Shown: positions 1-45,030 of the stretch, one piece after another
Layout of the letters: each line of letters begins with the position of its first letter
Numbering within the stretch: the first letter of the stretch is position 1
From: a virus
IMG/VR virus record: IMGVR_UViG_3300011442_000006
Location: 1 to 45,030 of that record
Direction: 5' to 3' (one strand)
DNA length: 45,030 nucleotides
Made by a program: the position numbers and the translations under genes
The notes under the pieces: model-generated
The model's database searches: none
What the model was told of the DNA's origin: nothing
The model's input: only the letters and a program-made list of their open reading frames with translations

Positions 1-123
1 GCGGGTATGATGCTGAGTGGCGTTGCCTTTCGGCTGCACAATTTGGACTTCCCCACGTTCGGGAGCGGGTGTTCATTGTTGCCTACGCCAGGGGCTCAGC
101 CGCACGGGGTCGCTGGGTCGAAC
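1..123. repeat. Terminal overlap, exact copy of 44908-45030 (circular closure of the contig)
   Basis: Read directly: gcgggtatgatgctgagtgg...ggtcgctgggtcgaac is present at both ends. The repeat lies inside one reading frame (methyltransferase), so it is an assembly or permutation overlap rather than a functional terminal repeat. Confidence 0.9.
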
Positions 124-668
124 GCGTGCTACCAACTGAAATCGCAGATTGGCCGGGATTTCTTGTACGTGCAAGAGAGCGAGGCCCTAATGGGCTTTCC
201 CGAAGGATGGTGCGATTAGATGGCCGTGAACTGGGCGGCGAGGAAGGCGGCACAGCGGGCCTTCCCAATCCTGAAGGCGTGCGAACATTGCGGGGCGACT
301 ACGGGTCTCGAGCGACACCATCCAGATTTGAGCAAGCCGGTGGAAATAATAGTACTCTGTCGGACGTGCCATGTAGCGGAGCACAACAAGACGGCTCGAG
401 GGTGGGGCGGCGGCCGAAGCGGGCGGAAGCAGCTGAGGCCATGCAAGGAATGTGGGACGATGTTTCTACCGACTCACTCAAAGAACCACACGCTTTGCAG
501 TCTAAAATGCAGATCGGTCGCGGGCCGTCGAAACGCAATGAAACGCTGGCATCCTACTCTCACCTCTCCCGCGACCTAAACCGACTGAAAGGGTACGGTA
601 ACGCGGTAGTGCCCGCCTGCGCCGAATGGATCGGTAAAAGACTTATGGCAGCTGCGCCGAAAGCCTGA
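1..668 (+). CDS. DNA (cytosine-5)-methyltransferase, 3' portion (continues from 44523-45030 through the circular junction); probably interrupted
   Basis: Frame 3 is open from GTG 44523 through the junction to TGA 666-668 (350 codons). Motif VIII QFGLPHVRERVFIV is at 39-80 and motif X GYGNAVVPACAEWIG at 591-635. Frame 3 between ~100 and ~560 is Arg/Gly-rich and motif-less. The expected ESEALMGFPEGW peptide (175-210) is in frame 1. Confidence 0.6.
   Translation, partial: GYDAEWRCLSAAQFGLPHVRERVFIVAYARGSAARGRWVERVLPTEIADWPGFLVRARERGPNGLSRRMVRLDGRELGGEEGGTAGLPNPEGVRTLRGDYGSRATPSRFEQAGGNNSTLSDVPCSGAQQDGSRVGRRPKRAEAAEAMQGMWDDVSTDSLKEPHALQSKMQIGRGPSKRNETLASYSHLSRDLNRLKGYGNAVVPACAEWIGKRLMAAAPKA
220..579 (+). 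CDS. HNH endonuclease (119 aa) nested inside the methyltransferase gene
   Basis: ATG 220 directly follows TAG 217-219. CEHCG-x8-HH...LCRTCHVAEHN is an HNH signature. A second Cys ribbon CKECG...CSLKC follows. The stop at 577-579 lies just upstream of MTase motif X. Confidence 0.75.
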   Translation: MAVNWAARKAAQRAFPILKACEHCGATTGLERHHPDLSKPVEIIVLCRTCHVAEHNKTARGWGGGRSGRKQLRPCKECGTMFLPTHSKNHTLCSLKCRSVAGRRNAMKRWHPTLTSPAT

Positions 669-674
669 TACAAT
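666..674 (+). promoter_or_regulatory. Extended -10 box TGATACAAT, 7 nt upstream of ATG 682 (leaderless configuration)
   Basis: TGATACAAT is followed by tacgccc then ATG, with no purine-rich SD in the gap. It overlaps the MTase stop codon. Confidence 0.5.
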
Positions 675-681
675 TACGCCC

Positions 682-870
682 ATGGCAAAGACTACTGCCC
701 CGACCGAAAAGCACCGCTTTAGTCAGTTTCTCCCGCACTGGCTGCATAAGCGGGTCCAGGCTCATGTCCGAGCCGAGAAGAAAAAGGGGCTCTCGACATC
801 AGTCACTCAGGTTATCGAGGAACTGGTGTACCAGGCGTTCAGCGGGAAACAGAAAAAAAGGGCAGCGTGA
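682..870 (+). CDS. small DNA-binding protein, ribbon-helix-helix-like (62 aa)
   Basis: HRFSQFLPHWLHKRVQAHV...STSVTQVIEELV resembles the strand plus two helices of Arc/CopG-type RHH proteins. The C-terminus is basic. Confidence 0.45.
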   Translation: MAKTTAPTEKHRFSQFLPHWLHKRVQAHVRAEKKKGLSTSVTQVIEELVYQAFSGKQKKRAA

Positions 871-1364
871 TGTTCCATAGCCACCACTACTACGATTTCA
901 AAGTAGACGTCACGATTCGCAATGGGCCGGCTGGGCCGGTGGAAGTCGACGAAGTTTTCAAAACGCTGGTAACTCAGCAACTTTCAACAATCATTACTCA
1001 AGGAGAAAAACTCATGGCATTTACAGCGGCCCAAACGAAGGCAATTCAGGACAAGCTCGACGACATGGAGCAAAAGGTTACCACGGCGGTATCGACAGCG
1101 ACCGCCGAAGCAGTAGCGAAGGAGTTGGGCGAAATCAAGAGCCAGCTTCAGAAGCTACGAGATATCATCGCCGAGGGCGGAACGGTGTCTGATGCGGATG
1201 TCGCCCAGGTAATCGGTTCGGTGGACGCGACCGGGACCCGGATGGCGACGAACCTCGGGACCGCTATTGCGGCCGCGATCGACAAGATCAGCGAGGACGA
1301 TGGGGGAACCGACACCGGCAGCGGCAGCGGAACACCGACGCCGAATCCCAACCCGGAACCGTAG
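867..1364 (+). CDS. hypothetical protein, coiled-coil with Pro/Asn-rich tail (165 aa)
   Basis: GTG 867 / ATG 870 overlaps the upstream stop (GTGATG). High GC3 ORF with no recognisable family. Confidence 0.6.
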   Translation: MMFHSHHYYDFKVDVTIRNGPAGPVEVDEVFKTLVTQQLSTIITQGEKLMAFTAAQTKAIQDKLDDMEQKVTTAVSTATAEAVAKELGEIKSQLQKLRDIIAEGGTVSDADVAQVIGSVDATGTRMATNLGTAIAAAIDKISEDDGGTDTGSGSGTPTPNPNPEP

Positions 1365-11808: not shown

Positions 11809-13125
11809 ATGCGATCTAAAGGTCTTAGGATCGACGCCCAATTTCCCGAAAAGCTTCAATGCCTATTCGAGCCCGAGTGGCAGTACATCGTCGCCAAGGG
11901 CGGCCGGGGCGGGGCGAAGTCGTGGGCATTCGCGCGGGCTCTACTGATCAAGGCAAGCGATAAGCGTCTACGCTGGCTCTGCGCCCGCGAGACCATGATC
12001 AGCATCAAGGACTCGGTCCACGCTCTATTGCGGGACCAGGTCGAGCGGATGGGCTTGCAGCGTGAGTTCGAGATAGGCGAGCGGATCATTCGATCGCGGC
12101 ATGGCTCAGAGATCACCTTCGCCGGGCTCAAGCACAATGTGCAGAACATCAAGAGCTATGAGGGCGCCGATGGCTGTTGGATCGAGGAGGCTCAGACGCT
12201 CTCCATGGATTCGTGGAACACGCTCGACCCGACCATCCGAAAAGCGGGCTCGCAAATCTGGATCAGCTATAACCCGACGTTTGAGACAGACGCCGTACAC
12301 CAGCTTTTCGTAATTCAAGAGCCCCCGCCGCGGACGATTGTGGTCGACATTGGTTGGGAGGACAATCCATGGTTCCCGGAAGAACTTGAGATTAAACGCC
12401 GGCAGATGCTGAAGGTCAACCCGGTGCTCTATACGCATATCTGGGGCGGCAAGTGCCGGTCGACGATCGAGGGCGCCGTATTCGGCAAAGAGATCGAGAA
12501 GGCGATGGAAAAAGGGCAGATGTCAGACTGGCCCCACGATCCACGCCGGCCGGTCAACACGTACTGGGATCTGGGATTCGGCGACAAATGCGCGATCTGG
12601 TTCGTGCAGAGCTACGGCGGGTACTACTATTTCATCGACTACGTGGAATCGAAGGGCGAAACAATCGAGTGGTACGTGAGGCACTTGCGGACTAAGGAAT
12701 ACAACTACGGCGAGCACTGGATACCGCACGATGGCGTGGACGCGGAGATTCACAAAAAGTTCGTCAATTCGAAGGACAAGAGCCCGGAGATGGTCATGCG
12801 AGAGCTTGGGCTCAATGTGCGGATCGCGGCGAAGAATCTGGTGTCGATCGGGATCGACGCGGCGAGGACAATCTTTCCGCTCTGCCGCTTCAACACCGAT
12901 AACTGCGAAGCAGGCCTCAGGGCTCTGAGGATGTACCAATGGGGTCCGCCATCGAAGACCGGGGTTATCAAGCGAGAGCCGTTGCACGATGACGCCAGCC
13001 ACGGGGCCGACGCGTTTCGTACTGCGGCGATGCGGTTAAAGCAACCGGTCAAGGAAGAGGAAAAGAAGCCGCCTCTGCCCCCGCCACGGGTGAAGATACC
13101 GGGCCCGTATAGACCTTTTGGGTAG
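11809..13125 (+). CDS. terL: terminase large subunit (438 aa)
   Basis: Walker A GGRGGAKS and Walker B CWIEEA. The C-terminal nuclease region has WDLGFGD...HD...DDASHGADA. Confidence 0.9.
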   Translation: MRSKGLRIDAQFPEKLQCLFEPEWQYIVAKGGRGGAKSWAFARALLIKASDKRLRWLCARETMISIKDSVHALLRDQVERMGLQREFEIGERIIRSRHGSEITFAGLKHNVQNIKSYEGADGCWIEEAQTLSMDSWNTLDPTIRKAGSQIWISYNPTFETDAVHQLFVIQEPPPRTIVVDIGWEDNPWFPEELEIKRRQMLKVNPVLYTHIWGGKCRSTIEGAVFGKEIEKAMEKGQMSDWPHDPRRPVNTYWDLGFGDKCAIWFVQSYGGYYYFIDYVESKGETIEWYVRHLRTKEYNYGEHWIPHDGVDAEIHKKFVNSKDKSPEMVMRELGLNVRIAAKNLVSIGIDAARTIFPLCRFNTDNCEAGLRALRMYQWGPPSKTGVIKREPLHDDASHGADAFRTAAMRLKQPVKEEEKKPPLPPPRVKIPGPYRPFG

Positions 13126-15859: not shown

Positions 15860-18097
15860 ATGGCACAGCCAACCCGTAAGGATCTCCCCGCATACGTCCG
15901 CGCTTGCTATGAGGCGTATATCAAGGCCGAGCAGCGGAACCGAAAAGCAGCCGAAGAGCGTTTGAAATTCTATATTGGTGGCGATCTGCAATGGAGGGAA
16001 GAAGAACTCCGAGCCCGTGAGCAGAGCCAGCGGCCCTTTATCACCATCAACCGTTGCAAGCCAGCCGTCGACCAGGTCGAGGGCGACATTCGGCTGAACC
16101 CACCGGGCCCGCAGTGTCACCCAGTCGGCGACGGGGCGGACGCCTCAACCGCCGACATCATCGAAGGACTGATCCGGGAAGTCGAGTCACGATCGAATGC
16201 AAAGACCGCCTACGCGACGGCCGGCAAGTACGTCGCGGCCTCTGGTGAGGCATACCTCGAGCTACGGAGTGAGTTCACCGGCGATCGCGAGTTCAGTCAG
16301 CAACTTTGCATCGATTCCGTGGAAGACCCGGCGACCGTGTTTTATGATCCCACCTCGCGACGCGCGAACCGGCAGGATGCCATGTGGGCGGGCAAGCTCA
16401 AGATGTACAACAAGGTCGACTATATAAGCCAGTTCGGGGCAACCCGCGCGGTGTTGCAGTCAACTGCGGTACAGCGGGCGGGCGGCTGGATTATGGACCG
16501 GATGGGTGTTGGCGGAAATCTAGCGGAGGTACATCGCTGGACCGGGGCCGGCGAAGGCCCGTTTTTTGTCGCCGAGTTCTACATGGTGACCGTCGAGCGG
16601 CGCACGCTCCGTATGTACACCGATCAAATCGCCCGGTACGACGATGAACCAGTTCCACCGGGAGTAACTCCCAAGGTCGACCCCAACGACAAAAAGGCGT
16701 ACACGCGTGAAGTGCCTGTCCGCACGATTACCAAGCACCTGGTCGATGCTCTCGAGGAATTGTCCGATCCGACCGAATGGCTGGGAAGTCTGATCCCGTT
16801 GTTTCCGGTGTTGGGTCCGGAGGTCTACATCAACGGGCAGCTGCATCGGCTTTCGCTTATCTCGGGAGCAATGGACGCTCAGCGAGCCTTGAACTATGTT
16901 GCGACGACGGCCGCGGAACTCGCGGGACTACTTCCGAAGTCGCCATGGATCGGAGCGAAGGGAGCATTTGAGGACCCGCGATGGGAAGCGGCGAATACGG
17001 AAATGTACGCGTACCTCGAATACTCGCCCGTCTTCGCGACCGACGCAATGGGTAACCAGGTGCTCGCCCCGGCCCCGCAACGGAACAACTGGGAAGCCCC
17101 GATTCAATGGCTTGAGATGTTGAAGCGATCGTTTAGCGACGACATCAAGGCGACGACGGCGACCTATGACGCGAGTCTTGGTGCGAATAAGGGCGACCAG
17201 TCGGGGAAAGCCATCGAGCAGTTGCGCTCGGAATCGAACGTCGGTAACTACAGCTACGCGGACAACCTACATCGGGCGATCGGCATTCTCTACGATCAAA
17301 TGTGCTGTATCTTTCCGAAAATCTACGACGGCCCGCGGGCGGTCACCGTGGTCAAGCCCGACTCGCAGCATGAAGTGGTCGACATCAACCGCATTTTCGG
17401 GGAAGACGGGATCGACCCCGACACTGGGCAGAAGGGTAAGGCAAATAATATCTGCCTCGGGCGGTATGTCGCGCGTGTCACGGTCGGTAAGGACTTCGAC
17501 ACCCGAAACCTCGAAGCGGTCGAGGCTCTAACGAACTTCTTCACTGTCGCGCCTCAGGCTCTTGCTGTGCCTGGGATCGCTTCGAACTTCCTCCGGATGA
17601 TCGGCCAGGGCAATCCGAAAGTCGAGCAGATGGCCGACTTGTTGCAGCCGAACGACGGCAACGAAGAGGCAACGCCGCAGGAGATGCAACAGAAGCTCCA
17701 GCAGGCAACCTCTCAGATTCAGGCGATGCAGGAAGTTATGCAGACGCTCGCTCAGAAACTACAGGCCAAGCTTCCGGAGATCGAGGCGAAGAAGTTTATC
17801 GCGGCGATGGACAATCTGACCCGTATCCGCGTTGCGGAGATCAACGCTTCAAAGGCTCTGTTGACCCAGCAGGCCGACGCGGAAGCCCGGCAACTCGAGA
17901 CCTCGCTCGGAATGGCTCACGAGACGGCGAGCGGGGCCGAGCAGCGAGAGCACGAAGACAAGCAGCAGGTACGCGATAAGGTAACTGCGGCGGGATCGCA
18001 GGCGGCCGAGCATGGACACGCGACGGAAATGGCCGAGAGCGCCGCGGACCGGGAAGATGCTCGGGCGGAACTGGCGGCGACCGCTCCCAAGAAGTAG
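15860..18097 (+). CDS. portal protein, P22-like (745 aa)
   Basis: The N-terminal block has QWREEELRAREQSQRPFITINRCKPAVDQVEGDIR and IIEGLIREVESRSNAKTAYATAG. The long C-terminal helical region is Gln/Ala-rich. The position fits between terL and scaffold/coat. Confidence 0.85.
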   Translation: MAQPTRKDLPAYVRACYEAYIKAEQRNRKAAEERLKFYIGGDLQWREEELRAREQSQRPFITINRCKPAVDQVEGDIRLNPPGPQCHPVGDGADASTADIIEGLIREVESRSNAKTAYATAGKYVAASGEAYLELRSEFTGDREFSQQLCIDSVEDPATVFYDPTSRRANRQDAMWAGKLKMYNKVDYISQFGATRAVLQSTAVQRAGGWIMDRMGVGGNLAEVHRWTGAGEGPFFVAEFYMVTVERRTLRMYTDQIARYDDEPVPPGVTPKVDPNDKKAYTREVPVRTITKHLVDALEELSDPTEWLGSLIPLFPVLGPEVYINGQLHRLSLISGAMDAQRALNYVATTAAELAGLLPKSPWIGAKGAFEDPRWEAANTEMYAYLEYSPVFATDAMGNQVLAPAPQRNNWEAPIQWLEMLKRSFSDDIKATTATYDASLGANKGDQSGKAIEQLRSESNVGNYSYADNLHRAIGILYDQMCCIFPKIYDGPRAVTVVKPDSQHEVVDINRIFGEDGIDPDTGQKGKANNICLGRYVARVTVGKDFDTRNLEAVEALTNFFTVAPQALAVPGIASNFLRMIGQGNPKVEQMADLLQPNDGNEEATPQEMQQKLQQATSQIQAMQEVMQTLAQKLQAKLPEIEAKKFIAAMDNLTRIRVAEINASKALLTQQADAEARQLETSLGMAHETASGAEQREHEDKQQVRDKVTAAGSQAAEHGHATEMAESAADREDARAELAATAPKK

Positions 18098-44522: not shown

Positions 44523-45030
44523 GTGACGTTCGGCTCGCTCTTTAGTGGGATCGGTGGAATGGACTTAGGCCTTGAGCGGGCAGGGCTCGAGGTACGCTGG
44601 CAAGTCGAAATAGACCCCTACTGCAATACCATCCTAGAAAAGCATTGGCCCGAGGTGAAACGCTATGGAGACATCGAAGAAGCCCGCGGCTCCGAGCTCG
44701 AGCCCGTTGACGTCCTTGCCGGGGGGTTCCCTTGTGTTGACGTTAGCCGGGTTGGACTACGAGCCGGCATCGGCGCCGAGCGATCCGGCCTTTGGTCGCA
44801 GTTCTTTCGATTGGTCGGTGAGTTACGACCCGGTTTCGTGCTCGTGGAAAACGTCCCAGGTTTGCTTGACGGGGGACTCAGCAGAGTTCTCGGAGACCTG
44901 GCCACGGGCGGGTATGATGCTGAGTGGCGTTGCCTTTCGGCTGCACAATTTGGACTTCCCCACGTTCGGGAGCGGGTGTTCATTGTTGCCTACGCCAGGG
45001 GCTCAGCCGCACGGGGTCGCTGGGTCGAAC
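44523..45030 (+). CDS. DNA (cytosine-5)-methyltransferase, 5' portion (continues at nt 124 of the window)
   Basis: My translation gives motif I FSGIGG (44541-44558), motif IV GGFPCVDVS (44721-44747, Val in place of the usual Gln), motif VI ENVPGLL (44847-44867), and the start of motif VIII. Confidence 0.85.
   Translation, partial: MTFGSLFSGIGGMDLGLERAGLEVRWQVEIDPYCNTILEKHWPEVKRYGDIEEARGSELEPVDVLAGGFPCVDVSRVGLRAGIGAERSGLWSQFFRLVGELRPGFVLVENVPGLLDGGLSRVLGDLATGGYDAEWRCLSAAQFGLPHVRERVFIVAYARGSAARGRWVE
44908..45030. repeat. Terminal overlap, exact copy of 1-123
   Basis: See the first feature. Confidence 0.9.

Follow-up and report, generated by a model that had tools for sequence, protein, structure and literature searches.

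A C5 methyltransferase probably encoded by two nested reading frames, with an HNH-like nuclease gene as a third, in a tailed-phage genome

How a phage methyltransferase can have its conserved motifs in two reading frames, with a nuclease-like gene lying between the last two of them, is the question raised by one locus of the virus record IMGVR_UViG_3300011442_000006 (IMG/VR), whose positions 1 to 45,030 constitute the window analysed here. A sequence-only reading of this stretch had placed motifs I, IV, VI, VIII and X of a C5 methyltransferase in frame 3, divided between positions 1–668 and a partner segment at 44523–45030. It had also noted that the peptide normally preceding motif X, ESEALMGFPEGW, is readable at 175–210 in frame 1 only, that this frame ends at a TAG (217–219) followed directly by the ATG (220) of a 119-codon HNH open reading frame (ORF), and that frame 3 stays open across this ORF. 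Each of these statements was checked against the sequence and proved correct. Three explanations had been offered, namely a homing element such as an HNH-carrying group I intron, a split or decayed gene, and overprinted genes with a divergent target recognition domain (TRD) in frame 3, together with a further +1 shift at about nt 100–150. We consider it probable that the locus encodes a two-polypeptide C5 methyltransferase, with chains alpha and beta read from nested frames, and that the HNH gene is a third nested ORF.

The ends of the window share an exact 123-nt overlap (1–123 = 44908–45030), which implies that the record is a circular, circularly permuted or terminally redundant genome of 44,907 bp. 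Because of this shared end, the two segments form one gene across the circular junction, and the genome junction sits within the methyltransferase gene. All signature motifs are carried by the single alpha chain (I, FxGxGG; IV, PC; VI, ENV; VIII, QxRxR; X, GNxVP), and alpha residues 2–162 match Pfam PF00145 with an E value of 2e-43 (coordinates in Table 1). Alpha has neither a variable region nor motif IX between motifs VIII and X, and LMGFPEGW is found only in frame 1. A database search returned C5 methyltransferases in the thousands, ~225 aa long and with very little sequence separating motifs VIII and X. The best match, P0001 (73% identical), reads ...RGRWVQRVLPATLPDRAGFLIRARERGVNGLSRELDRLKGYGNAVVP, and window frame 3 reads ...RGRWVERVLPTEIADWPGFLVRARERGPNGLSR, then the insert, then DLNRLKGYGNAVVP. 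As the P0001 reading aligns on either side of the insert, frame 3 is continuous with its homologs and the window has 123 extra codons, which are stop-free and rich in Arg, Gly and Glu. The contig of P0001, termed L009, represents the uninterrupted allele of the same locus, since the downstream gene is common to both. In an AlphaFold2 (AF2) model of the mini-alpha homolog P0003, the 10-residue block means of the predicted local distance difference test (pLDDT) were 79–98 for residues 1–160, most of them above 90, and the motif X helix (residues 209–225) had values of 90–95, with 51–66 for the spacer, which agrees with an alpha spacer that is not a folded domain. Across the family, the length of this spacer already ranges from ~50 to ~400 residues.

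The variable region and motif IX lie at the end of a +1 ORF nested in alpha, which we call beta, and the substitutions between the window and L009 locate selection in that frame. The +1 frame of L009 reads LLPTPGAQPHGVAGSNACYQLRSQIGRDFLYVQESEALMGFPENWTD and then a stop, near-identical to frame 1 of the window. We tallied the differences between the two sequences by alpha codon position (1/2/3) and by the amino acid changes that they cause in frames 0/+1/+2. Codons 1–47 gave nucleotide counts of 6/3/20 and amino acid counts of 6/22/21, codons 48–157 (motifs IV–VIII) gave 12/7/25 and 14/31/38, and codons 158–197 (from past motif VIII to the +1 stop) gave 14/2/2 and 13/2/14. Over these last 40 codons, frame 1 thus has two amino acid changes and frame 3 has 13 in the same DNA, and the frame-1 peptide is no fortuitous resemblance. 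Because the positions of the substitutions switch, purifying selection moves from frame 3 to frame 1 just past motif VIII and returns to frame 3 at motif X. For 18 related pairs from other loci, the nucleotide counts by alpha position were 243/84/612 in motifs I–VIII, 422/261/235 in the variable region, and 49/27/149 past the +1 stop, the differences in the variable region sitting at the first alpha codon position, equivalent to the third in beta. Judged by these substitutions, the frame-3 reading of the variable stretch is an unconstrained spacer. The +1 frame of the window is open with a stop-free probability of 0.035 under synonymous shuffles of alpha.

We regard the frame-1 peptide LLPTPGA...LMGFPEGW as likely to be the conserved end of the nested beta ORF, which makes a frameshift unnecessary, including the one that the sequence-only reading had postulated. 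Its idea of overprinted genes comes closest, with the detail of the TRD reversed: it is frame 1 that carries motif IX and the variable region, and frame 3 holds the spacer. That reading had treated a frame 3 conserved as TRD in homologs and a missing frame-1 LMGFPEGW as going together; the homologs do have a continuous frame 3, and LMGFPEGW is present and conserved in them too. The possibility that frame-1 LMGFP is a relic or shadow of the frame-3 string EPDVGRVA.G.P.RVDRL was ruled out for the window clade, as the changes relative to L009 are silent when read in frame 1 and not so when read in frame 3. The beta ORFs alone match no Pfam family. A chimera query built from the related locus L021 (alpha motifs I–VIII, the beta end and motif X), scored against Pfam and PDB sequences, matched M.HhaI and M.HaeIII; the chimeras gave no clear gain over read-through alpha, with scores 1–2 bits apart and both matches ending at motif VIII, and the comparison is uninformative.

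The same nesting is found throughout a wide family. Among 80 related IMG/VR loci, 66 (G+C 0.42–0.72) carry motifs VIII and X in one open frame, with motif IX (...NP.WVEWLMGFP.GWT...) in the +1 frame between them. In 58 of these 66 loci, the +1 frame is stop-free for 92 codons up to motif VIII, compared with 4.6 expected from synonymous shuffles. The open +1 stretch starts at a median of 113 codons 5' of motif VIII, and the first beta ATG falls at a few fixed places, with GGAG or GAGGT before each; the arrangement of GAGGT and ATG is repeated in L009, L014, L050, L072, L082 and L093. The +1 ORFs match phrog_1008 'DNA methyltransferase', with an E value of 6e-72 for Bloom_57 (the value for the window is in Table 1). 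Annotated phage context was obtained by tblastn with the +1 peptide: in GenBank, BLOOM_57 of Paenibacillus phage Bloom is annotated as nested within the C5 methyltransferase gene BLOOM_56, and Mycobacterium phage Phanphagia gp65/66 and Streptomyces phage Samy 49/50 are overlapping pairs whose second ORF also bears motif X. At least 6186 database clusters match the beta ORF of L021, most of them named hypothetical proteins, and P0138, seemingly a free-standing beta-type protein, is nested as well.

Several database strings of the family can be recognised as double readings. In L007 and L016–L093, EPDVGRVA.G(V/I)P.RVDRL(R/K)GLGNAVVPQ (frame 0) and NP.WVEWLMGFP.GWTDLEDSETP (+1) are the same DNA read twice, and the 'VADA/ADTD' strings of database methyltransferases arise when WPTP(T/S)A modules are read in the other frame. 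Many deposited proteins of the family hence include such an other-frame reading, a stretch unlikely to be a folded domain. At L104 (NCBI MAG contig JAZHBT013185629.1, 391–1748), motifs I–III share a frame with beta-type sequence (P0236) and motifs IV–X are in the -1 frame, and a separate Pfam-HNH gene lies directly 5' (391–804); either the family has one more arrangement here, or a frameshift or an error of assembly lies behind it, and P0152 and P0172 resemble this case. At L070 (IMGVR_UViG_3300005531_000248, 617–2000), the variable region, motif IX and motif X are in three frames relative to the close relative L035, as in a decaying copy or through indel errors of assembly. L004 has at 1–300 an extra segment of ~34 codons between the GDI region and alpha motif IV, which, when read in +1, gives a PTP-type module, FYPTPRASDAERGGRGELL, resembling the ones in the variable region of beta; a recognition-type module thus stands far upstream there, in the otherwise unconstrained part of beta.

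The borders of the insert were set at the base level against the syntenic L009, by the alignment with intact homologs that the sequence-only reading had suggested. The uninterrupted target of L009 type reads ...GGGCTTTCCCGAGAACTGGACCGATTGAAAGGCTACGG..., and its segment CTTTCCCGAGAACTGGACCGATTGA is present twice in the window, as diverged 25-nt copies on the two sides of the unique DNA. The insert hence adds 369 nt to alpha, that is, 123 codons and a multiple of three. Copy 1 keeps the beta reading (FPEGWCD and stop, compared with FPENWTD and stop in L009), and its frame 3 has drifted (LSRRMVRLD versus LSRELDRLK). Copy 2 keeps the alpha reading (LSRDLNRLK versus LSRELDRLK), and its frame 1 is broken (T, stop, TD, stop); this copy also gives the HNH ORF its final codons and its stop. 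Other lineages have an equivalent split in their protein readings; L001, for instance, has WLQGFPPGWTEV and a stop upstream in the beta frame and PRVASDIPHRVDRLRGLGNAVVP downstream in the alpha frame. That each copy keeps one reading speaks for a role of both readings of this overlapped stretch in the uninterrupted genes. At L047 (IMGVR_UViG_3300036851_000513, ~2300–2500), a segment of ~25 codons covering motif IX and the region before motif X is duplicated with no HNH ORF present, reading EPSVGQLVDELPPDV ... IPRVAKGIARRVPWLRSDGNAV in frame 0 and NPVWVNWLMNFPLTW in +1; this could be the footprint of an HNH loss or the precursor of an insertion.

The ORF in the insert starts at an ATG that adjoins the beta stop (TAGATG) in the beta frame and ends at a TAA (577–579) 11 nt before motif X. 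It matches phrog_2340 'endonuclease' with an E value of 1.9e-9 and has the signature residues C21, C24, H33, H34, C47, C50, H51 and H55, of which all but H55 are invariant in six relatives. In its AF2 model (mean pLDDT 75), strands at 30–33 and 44–47 and a helix at 48–58 form a beta-beta-alpha unit (30–58). Related HNH ORFs occur at the same site in at least seven lineages (the window, L001–6, L007/L097/L098–100, L053, L095, L096 and L102). They are 42–57% identical between lineages and lie directly past the beta stop in the beta frame, with start and stop forming TAGATG or lying within 3 nt of each other in most lineages; the exception is L096, where TRD, IX and X share one frame and the HNH ORF stands between IX and X in +1 to that frame, with no beta stop before it. 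An IMG/VR search with three HNH sequences returned only the L053 contig, and the further loci came from a metagenome scan. The HNH ORF is missing from the closest relative, L009, and from 79 of the 80 IMG/VR relatives. HNH identity does not track the identity of the host catalytic domain and is often higher (for example, 48% versus 33%). We infer that the HNH ORF is a mobile element of homing type, for which the lack of correlation between HNH and host is only suggestive. Distant relatives of the HNH protein occur at L008 (P0123), where P0123 adjoins a GntR-like regulator ORF, and as P0124, whose zinc ribbon is N-terminal and not C-terminal; as both lie outside methyltransferase genes, the nuclease family is not confined to this insertion site.

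In all nine HNH-bearing sequences examined, the frame leading to motif X is stop-free across the HNH gene. Under synonymous shuffles of each HNH ORF, the probabilities of a stop-free host frame were 0.013, 0.11, 0.044, <0.0003, 0.0007, 0.24, 0.34, 0.16 and 0.0003, and the value for the 123 extra alpha codons of the window is ~0.01. By these shuffles, selection prevents stops in the host frame along the nuclease gene.

Table 1. Features of the methyltransferase locus and two structural genes of the window
Feature	Position	Strand	Remarks
Alpha ORF, C5 methyltransferase, whole	GTG 44523 to TGA 666–668	+	frame 3, 350 codons
Alpha 5' part (GTG start; motifs I, IV, VI, VIII)	44523..45030	+	PF00145; homologs 60–73% identical
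Motif I, FSGIGG	44541–44558	+	alpha frame 3
Shine-Dalgarno-like GAGGTG	44652..44657	+	7 nt 5' of beta ATG; within alpha codons W-P-E-V
Beta ORF 5' part	44665..45030	+	ATG 44665–44667, +1 relative to alpha; open, not conserved as protein
Motif IV, GGFPC	44721–44735	+	alpha frame 3
Motif VI, ENV	44847–44855	+	alpha frame 3
Alpha 3' part: motif VIII end, spacer, HNH read-through, motif X, stop 666–668	1..668	+	frame 3; matches P0001 ...RARERGVNGLSRELDRLKGYGNAVVP
Beta ORF 3' part	1..219	+	frame 1, stop TAG 217–219; whole beta 153 aa; phrog_1008 E = 1.7e-12
Motif VIII, QFGLPHVRERVF	39–74 = 44946–44981	+	alpha frame 3
Part of beta under selection, SLLPTPGAQPHGVAGSNACYQLKSQIGRDFLYVQESEALMGFPEGWCD (motif IX and a mini variable region)	73..216	+	frame-specific substitution counts vs L009
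25-nt target copy 1, CTTTCCCGAAGGATGGTGCGATTAG	195..219	+	17/25 nt identical to L009 target CTTTCCCGAGAACTGGACCGATTGA; keeps beta FPEGWCD and stop
123 extra alpha codons	204..572	+	frame 3, stop-free, Arg/Gly/Glu-rich; vs uninterrupted homologs
HNH-like nuclease ORF, 119 aa	220..579	+	frame 1; CxxC...RHH...LCxxCHxxxH and C-terminal zinc ribbon; phrog_2340
Unique inserted DNA, 344 nt	220..563	+	not in uninterrupted homolog L009
25-nt target copy 2, CTCTCCCGCGACCTAAACCGACTGA	564..588	+	19/25 nt identical to L009 target; keeps alpha LSRDLNRLK
Motif X region, GYGNAVVPACAEWIG	591..635	+	alpha frame 3; core GYGNAVVP 591–614
Terminase large subunit	11809–13125	+	
Portal protein	15860–18097	+	

Put together, these features suggest the following arrangement. 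Alpha would be the catalytic large domain, comprising motifs I–VIII, an unconstrained spacer and the motif X helix. Translation of beta would start at a ribosome-binding site of its own within alpha; the initial ~100 residues of beta would be a mere other-frame reading of alpha, free to evolve, and the last ~47 residues (LLPTPGA...LMGFPEGW) would form the small-domain part, comprising motif IX and the variable region. Presumably this part associates with alpha in trans, as happens in the methyltransferase M.EcoHK31I, and the assembled pair would be the enzyme that methylates DNA. The HNH gene would have inserted just past the beta stop along with a target duplication of ~25 nt, after which the upstream copy would serve beta (motif IX and stop) and the downstream copy alpha (the codons before motif X). 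Because the HNH start abuts the beta stop, translation of the HNH ORF is probably coupled to that of beta, and as the 123-codon insert is in frame and stop-free, alpha would be translated through the nuclease gene in another frame, which may just lengthen its already variable spacer.

The nuclease could also be more than a selfish element, alpha, beta and the HNH protein being one functional module, such as a compact restriction-modification or exclusion cassette in which the nuclease is translationally coupled to a methyltransferase subunit. The abutting start and stop in most lineages would suit this, as would HNH Cys and His residues that stay invariant across such diverged lineages, and the persistence of the arrangement in diverse hosts. 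Several other roles are known for small HNH proteins of phages. The methyltransferase can do without the HNH gene, because L009 and nearly all IMG/VR relatives lack it, and we hold a joint module to be unlikely.

Several observations weigh against the two-chain proposal with a mobile nuclease gene. Between the window and L009, protein conservation is lacking in the N-terminal ~100 residues of beta, and for this reason a +1 ribosomal shift past motif VIII fits the substitutions equally well; what argues against such a shift is solely the open upstream +1 frame and the pattern of ATG and Shine-Dalgarno (SD) sequences. Frame 0 is open through the variable region in 66 of 66 loci compared with 9.7 expected, a count that is partly circular because the loci were picked for a motif X in the same open frame. 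The proposal also entails a predicted read-through of alpha, and an insertion of 123 residues right before motif X might impair the enzyme. Within the insert, the usual HNH Asn is missing, and the Pfam HNH model gives the window ORF an E value of 0.11, below the cut-off (the best family member, 0.0023). A Foldseek search of the AF2 model against the PDB found no match at E ≤ 0.001 and HNH proteins only at E values of 1–3, and the HNH alignment profile gave only chance zinc-finger matches among PDB sequences. With Pfam subthreshold and nothing significant from Foldseek, the assignment as HNH is probable and not proven, and the nuclease activity is putative. Selection on the HNH frame also appears only moderate: in three related copies, the synonymous share of differences was 33–42%, compared with 30–32% for the host frame and 20–26% for the third frame.

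The first of these points leads to recoding, in which one methyltransferase would be made through a +1 ribosomal frameshift past motif VIII and a return before motif X, the HNH-bearing allele needing a long bypass. The substitution pattern shows the selected frame for each segment and fits a fused product too, the unconserved N-terminal part of beta is as expected, and the 25-nt duplicates can be read as take-off and landing sites. A shift, however, needs none of the ~100 open +1 codons found 5' of its site in most nested loci, nor the ATG and SD sequence that repeatedly head this stretch, and a bypass needs frame 0 open neither through the variable region nor through the HNH gene. No slippery sequence was seen at the junction in the window and L009, which were read by eye with no systematic survey. 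The hallmarks of bypassing, a stop after the take-off site and a short non-coding gap, are lacking as well: frame 3 has no stop past the putative take-off, and the gap (204–572) is stop-free, 369 nt long and protein-coding. The hop in T4 gene 60 covers 50 nt, and we know of no precedent for one of 369 nt. M.EcoHK31I functions as two chains (PMC2836561). Taken as a whole, this evidence makes recoding decidedly unlikely.

It is very improbable that the HNH insertion killed the methyltransferase and left a decaying gene with a selfish element, frame 3 being open by chance at 57% G+C. An insertion at this place could have done harm, and the chance of an open frame is not small in the most G+C-rich HNH copies (0.16–0.34). 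Nine of nine copies, from at least seven lineages, nevertheless have the frame open; four of these copies have P ≤ 0.013, and all nine together give a joint probability far below 1e-10. The length of the insert is divisible by three, of the two target copies the downstream one retains the alpha reading and the upstream one the beta reading, and purifying selection acts on beta and on the alpha N-terminus between the window and L009. The split or decayed gene of the sequence-only reading is thus contradicted by purifying selection in both frames, and the invariant Cys and His residues of the HNH family are all present.

A spliced insert, either a group I or II intron with an HNH homing endonuclease or an intein, would suit a highly conserved site in a conserved gene and the fact that HNH-type phage homing endonucleases are often intron-borne, and is scarcely credible here, given that Rfam returned no intron or other family at E ≤ 10 in window 1–1200, within which (210–590) the sequence-only reading had proposed a covariance search for its intron, or at E ≤ 0.1 in seven further loci that carry the HNH ORF, that no room is left for a ribozyme core outside the ORF because all 344 unique nt are coding, that an intein is impossible because the HNH motifs (frame 1) are not in the host frame (frame 3), whose insert peptide RMVRLDG...SHLSR has neither an N-terminal Cys/Ser nor a C-terminal His-Asn plus Cys/Ser/Thr, and that splicing would make the open frame 3, seen in every copy, needless. 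A separately initiated motif-X peptide from a frame-3 ATG near 507 was also considered and is unlikely, since it leaves the open frame 3 across the whole HNH region unexplained. An assembly artefact at the 123-nt overlap, part of which the sequence-only reading had suspected in its frame switch, was ruled out: independent assemblies (L009, L014–L093) have the same frames, and the overlap plays no part.

The surroundings of the locus are those of a phage. The window encodes a terminase large subunit and a portal protein and is therefore a tailed-phage genome, in which all ORFs longer than 200 aa are on the + strand. In a blastn search against phage records, window 1–1200 had no match. Directly 3' of the methyltransferase, a 62-aa ORF (682–870) is conserved and syntenic in L009 (MAKTTAPTEKHRFSQFLPHWLH... 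versus MAAQTQARDKHRFSQFLPFWLH...); it has no PHROG match at E ≤ 1e-5.

If the two-chain proposal with a nested nuclease gene is right, about 1 kb accommodates a chain for catalysis together with a recognition chain and a nuclease that are both nested, with measurable selection keeping each frame open. A mobile nuclease gene would then persist inside coding sequence at an essential site without splicing, and overlapping genes, whose DNA is under double constraint, would offer homing a natural target. The flanking duplication is a natural experiment in this respect, arguing that both readings of the overlapped segment are functional. For databases, thousands of family proteins named 'methyltransferase' include the other-frame reading of the real recognition domain, and more than 6000 clusters of nested ORFs are filed as hypothetical proteins; since the recognition domain is read in the nested ORF, specificity prediction for these phage methyltransferases should use that ORF. 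A wider view seems to us about evenly balanced between right and wrong: the HNH ORFs would be a homing-gene lineage specialised on the doubly coded segment of motif IX and the pre-motif-X codons, sparing the host gene by overprinting, with the host protein translated across the nuclease gene in another frame, as a third route besides introns and inteins, and with duplicated target copies that each serve one host frame; the broader family would form a class of two-chain phage methyltransferases, very large and for the most part unannotated, whose whole small domain comes from a nested ORF.

Among known systems, the layout can be compared first with M.EcoHK31I, reportedly described by Lee, Kam and Shaw in 1995. 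According to two articles, this is a two-polypeptide C5 methyltransferase of specificity YGGCCR, whose beta lies wholly inside alpha in another frame, whose chains must associate for activity, and whose first 42 beta residues are dispensable in vitro (PMC2836561, PMC3404938). As far as these descriptions go, alpha there has motifs I–VIII plus X and the nested beta has motif IX, as in the window, and the dispensable N-terminus of beta has its counterpart in the unconstrained N-terminus of the window's beta; the window fits an M.EcoHK31I-type layout by this analogy. Unlike M.EcoHK31I, for which the same literature places the TRD on alpha and which has no internal nuclease ORF, the window has a nuclease ORF and a variable region selected in the beta frame, the latter counting against our proposal in a comparison made by description and not by sequence.

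M.AquI consists of two ORFs, alpha with motifs I–VIII and beta with IX–X (PMC3404938). Its two-chain layout resembles those of Phanphagia gp65/66, Samy 49/50 and L096, in which the second ORF overlaps the first in +1; in the window, unlike M.AquI, motif X remains on alpha and the small-domain ORF is fully nested. Compared with phrog_1008 and BLOOM_57, the variable region of the window's beta is much shorter (~47 conserved residues), and none of the annotated phage examples seen (BLOOM_56/57 and such pairs) has the HNH ORF.

Free-standing HNH homing genes of phages include the T4 mob genes and mobE, which splits nrdA in Aeromonas phage Aeh1. The HNH ORF resembles these in being small, with its own start, sporadic at one conserved site and absent from close relatives, and differs in the target duplication of 20–45 nt that flanks the inserts here. 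To our knowledge, homing insertions lie between genes, split the host gene in two or depend on intron or intein splicing, whereas the methyltransferase ORF here stays intact and is read across the nuclease gene in a different frame. The bypass element of T4 gene 60 with mobA is a mobile, nuclease-associated insertion that does not destroy the host protein, and the window shares with it an insertion inside coding sequence, matching flanking codons and a spared host protein; unlike gene 60, its host frame is open, with no stop past the first copy and no need of a bypass, and the insertion is several times longer than the gene 60 hop. The kinds of element seen here are therefore known ones, and what is new is that three genes are nested, that read-through is maintained, that a duplicated target shares out the two host readings, and that the family, unannotated as it is, has such an apparent size.

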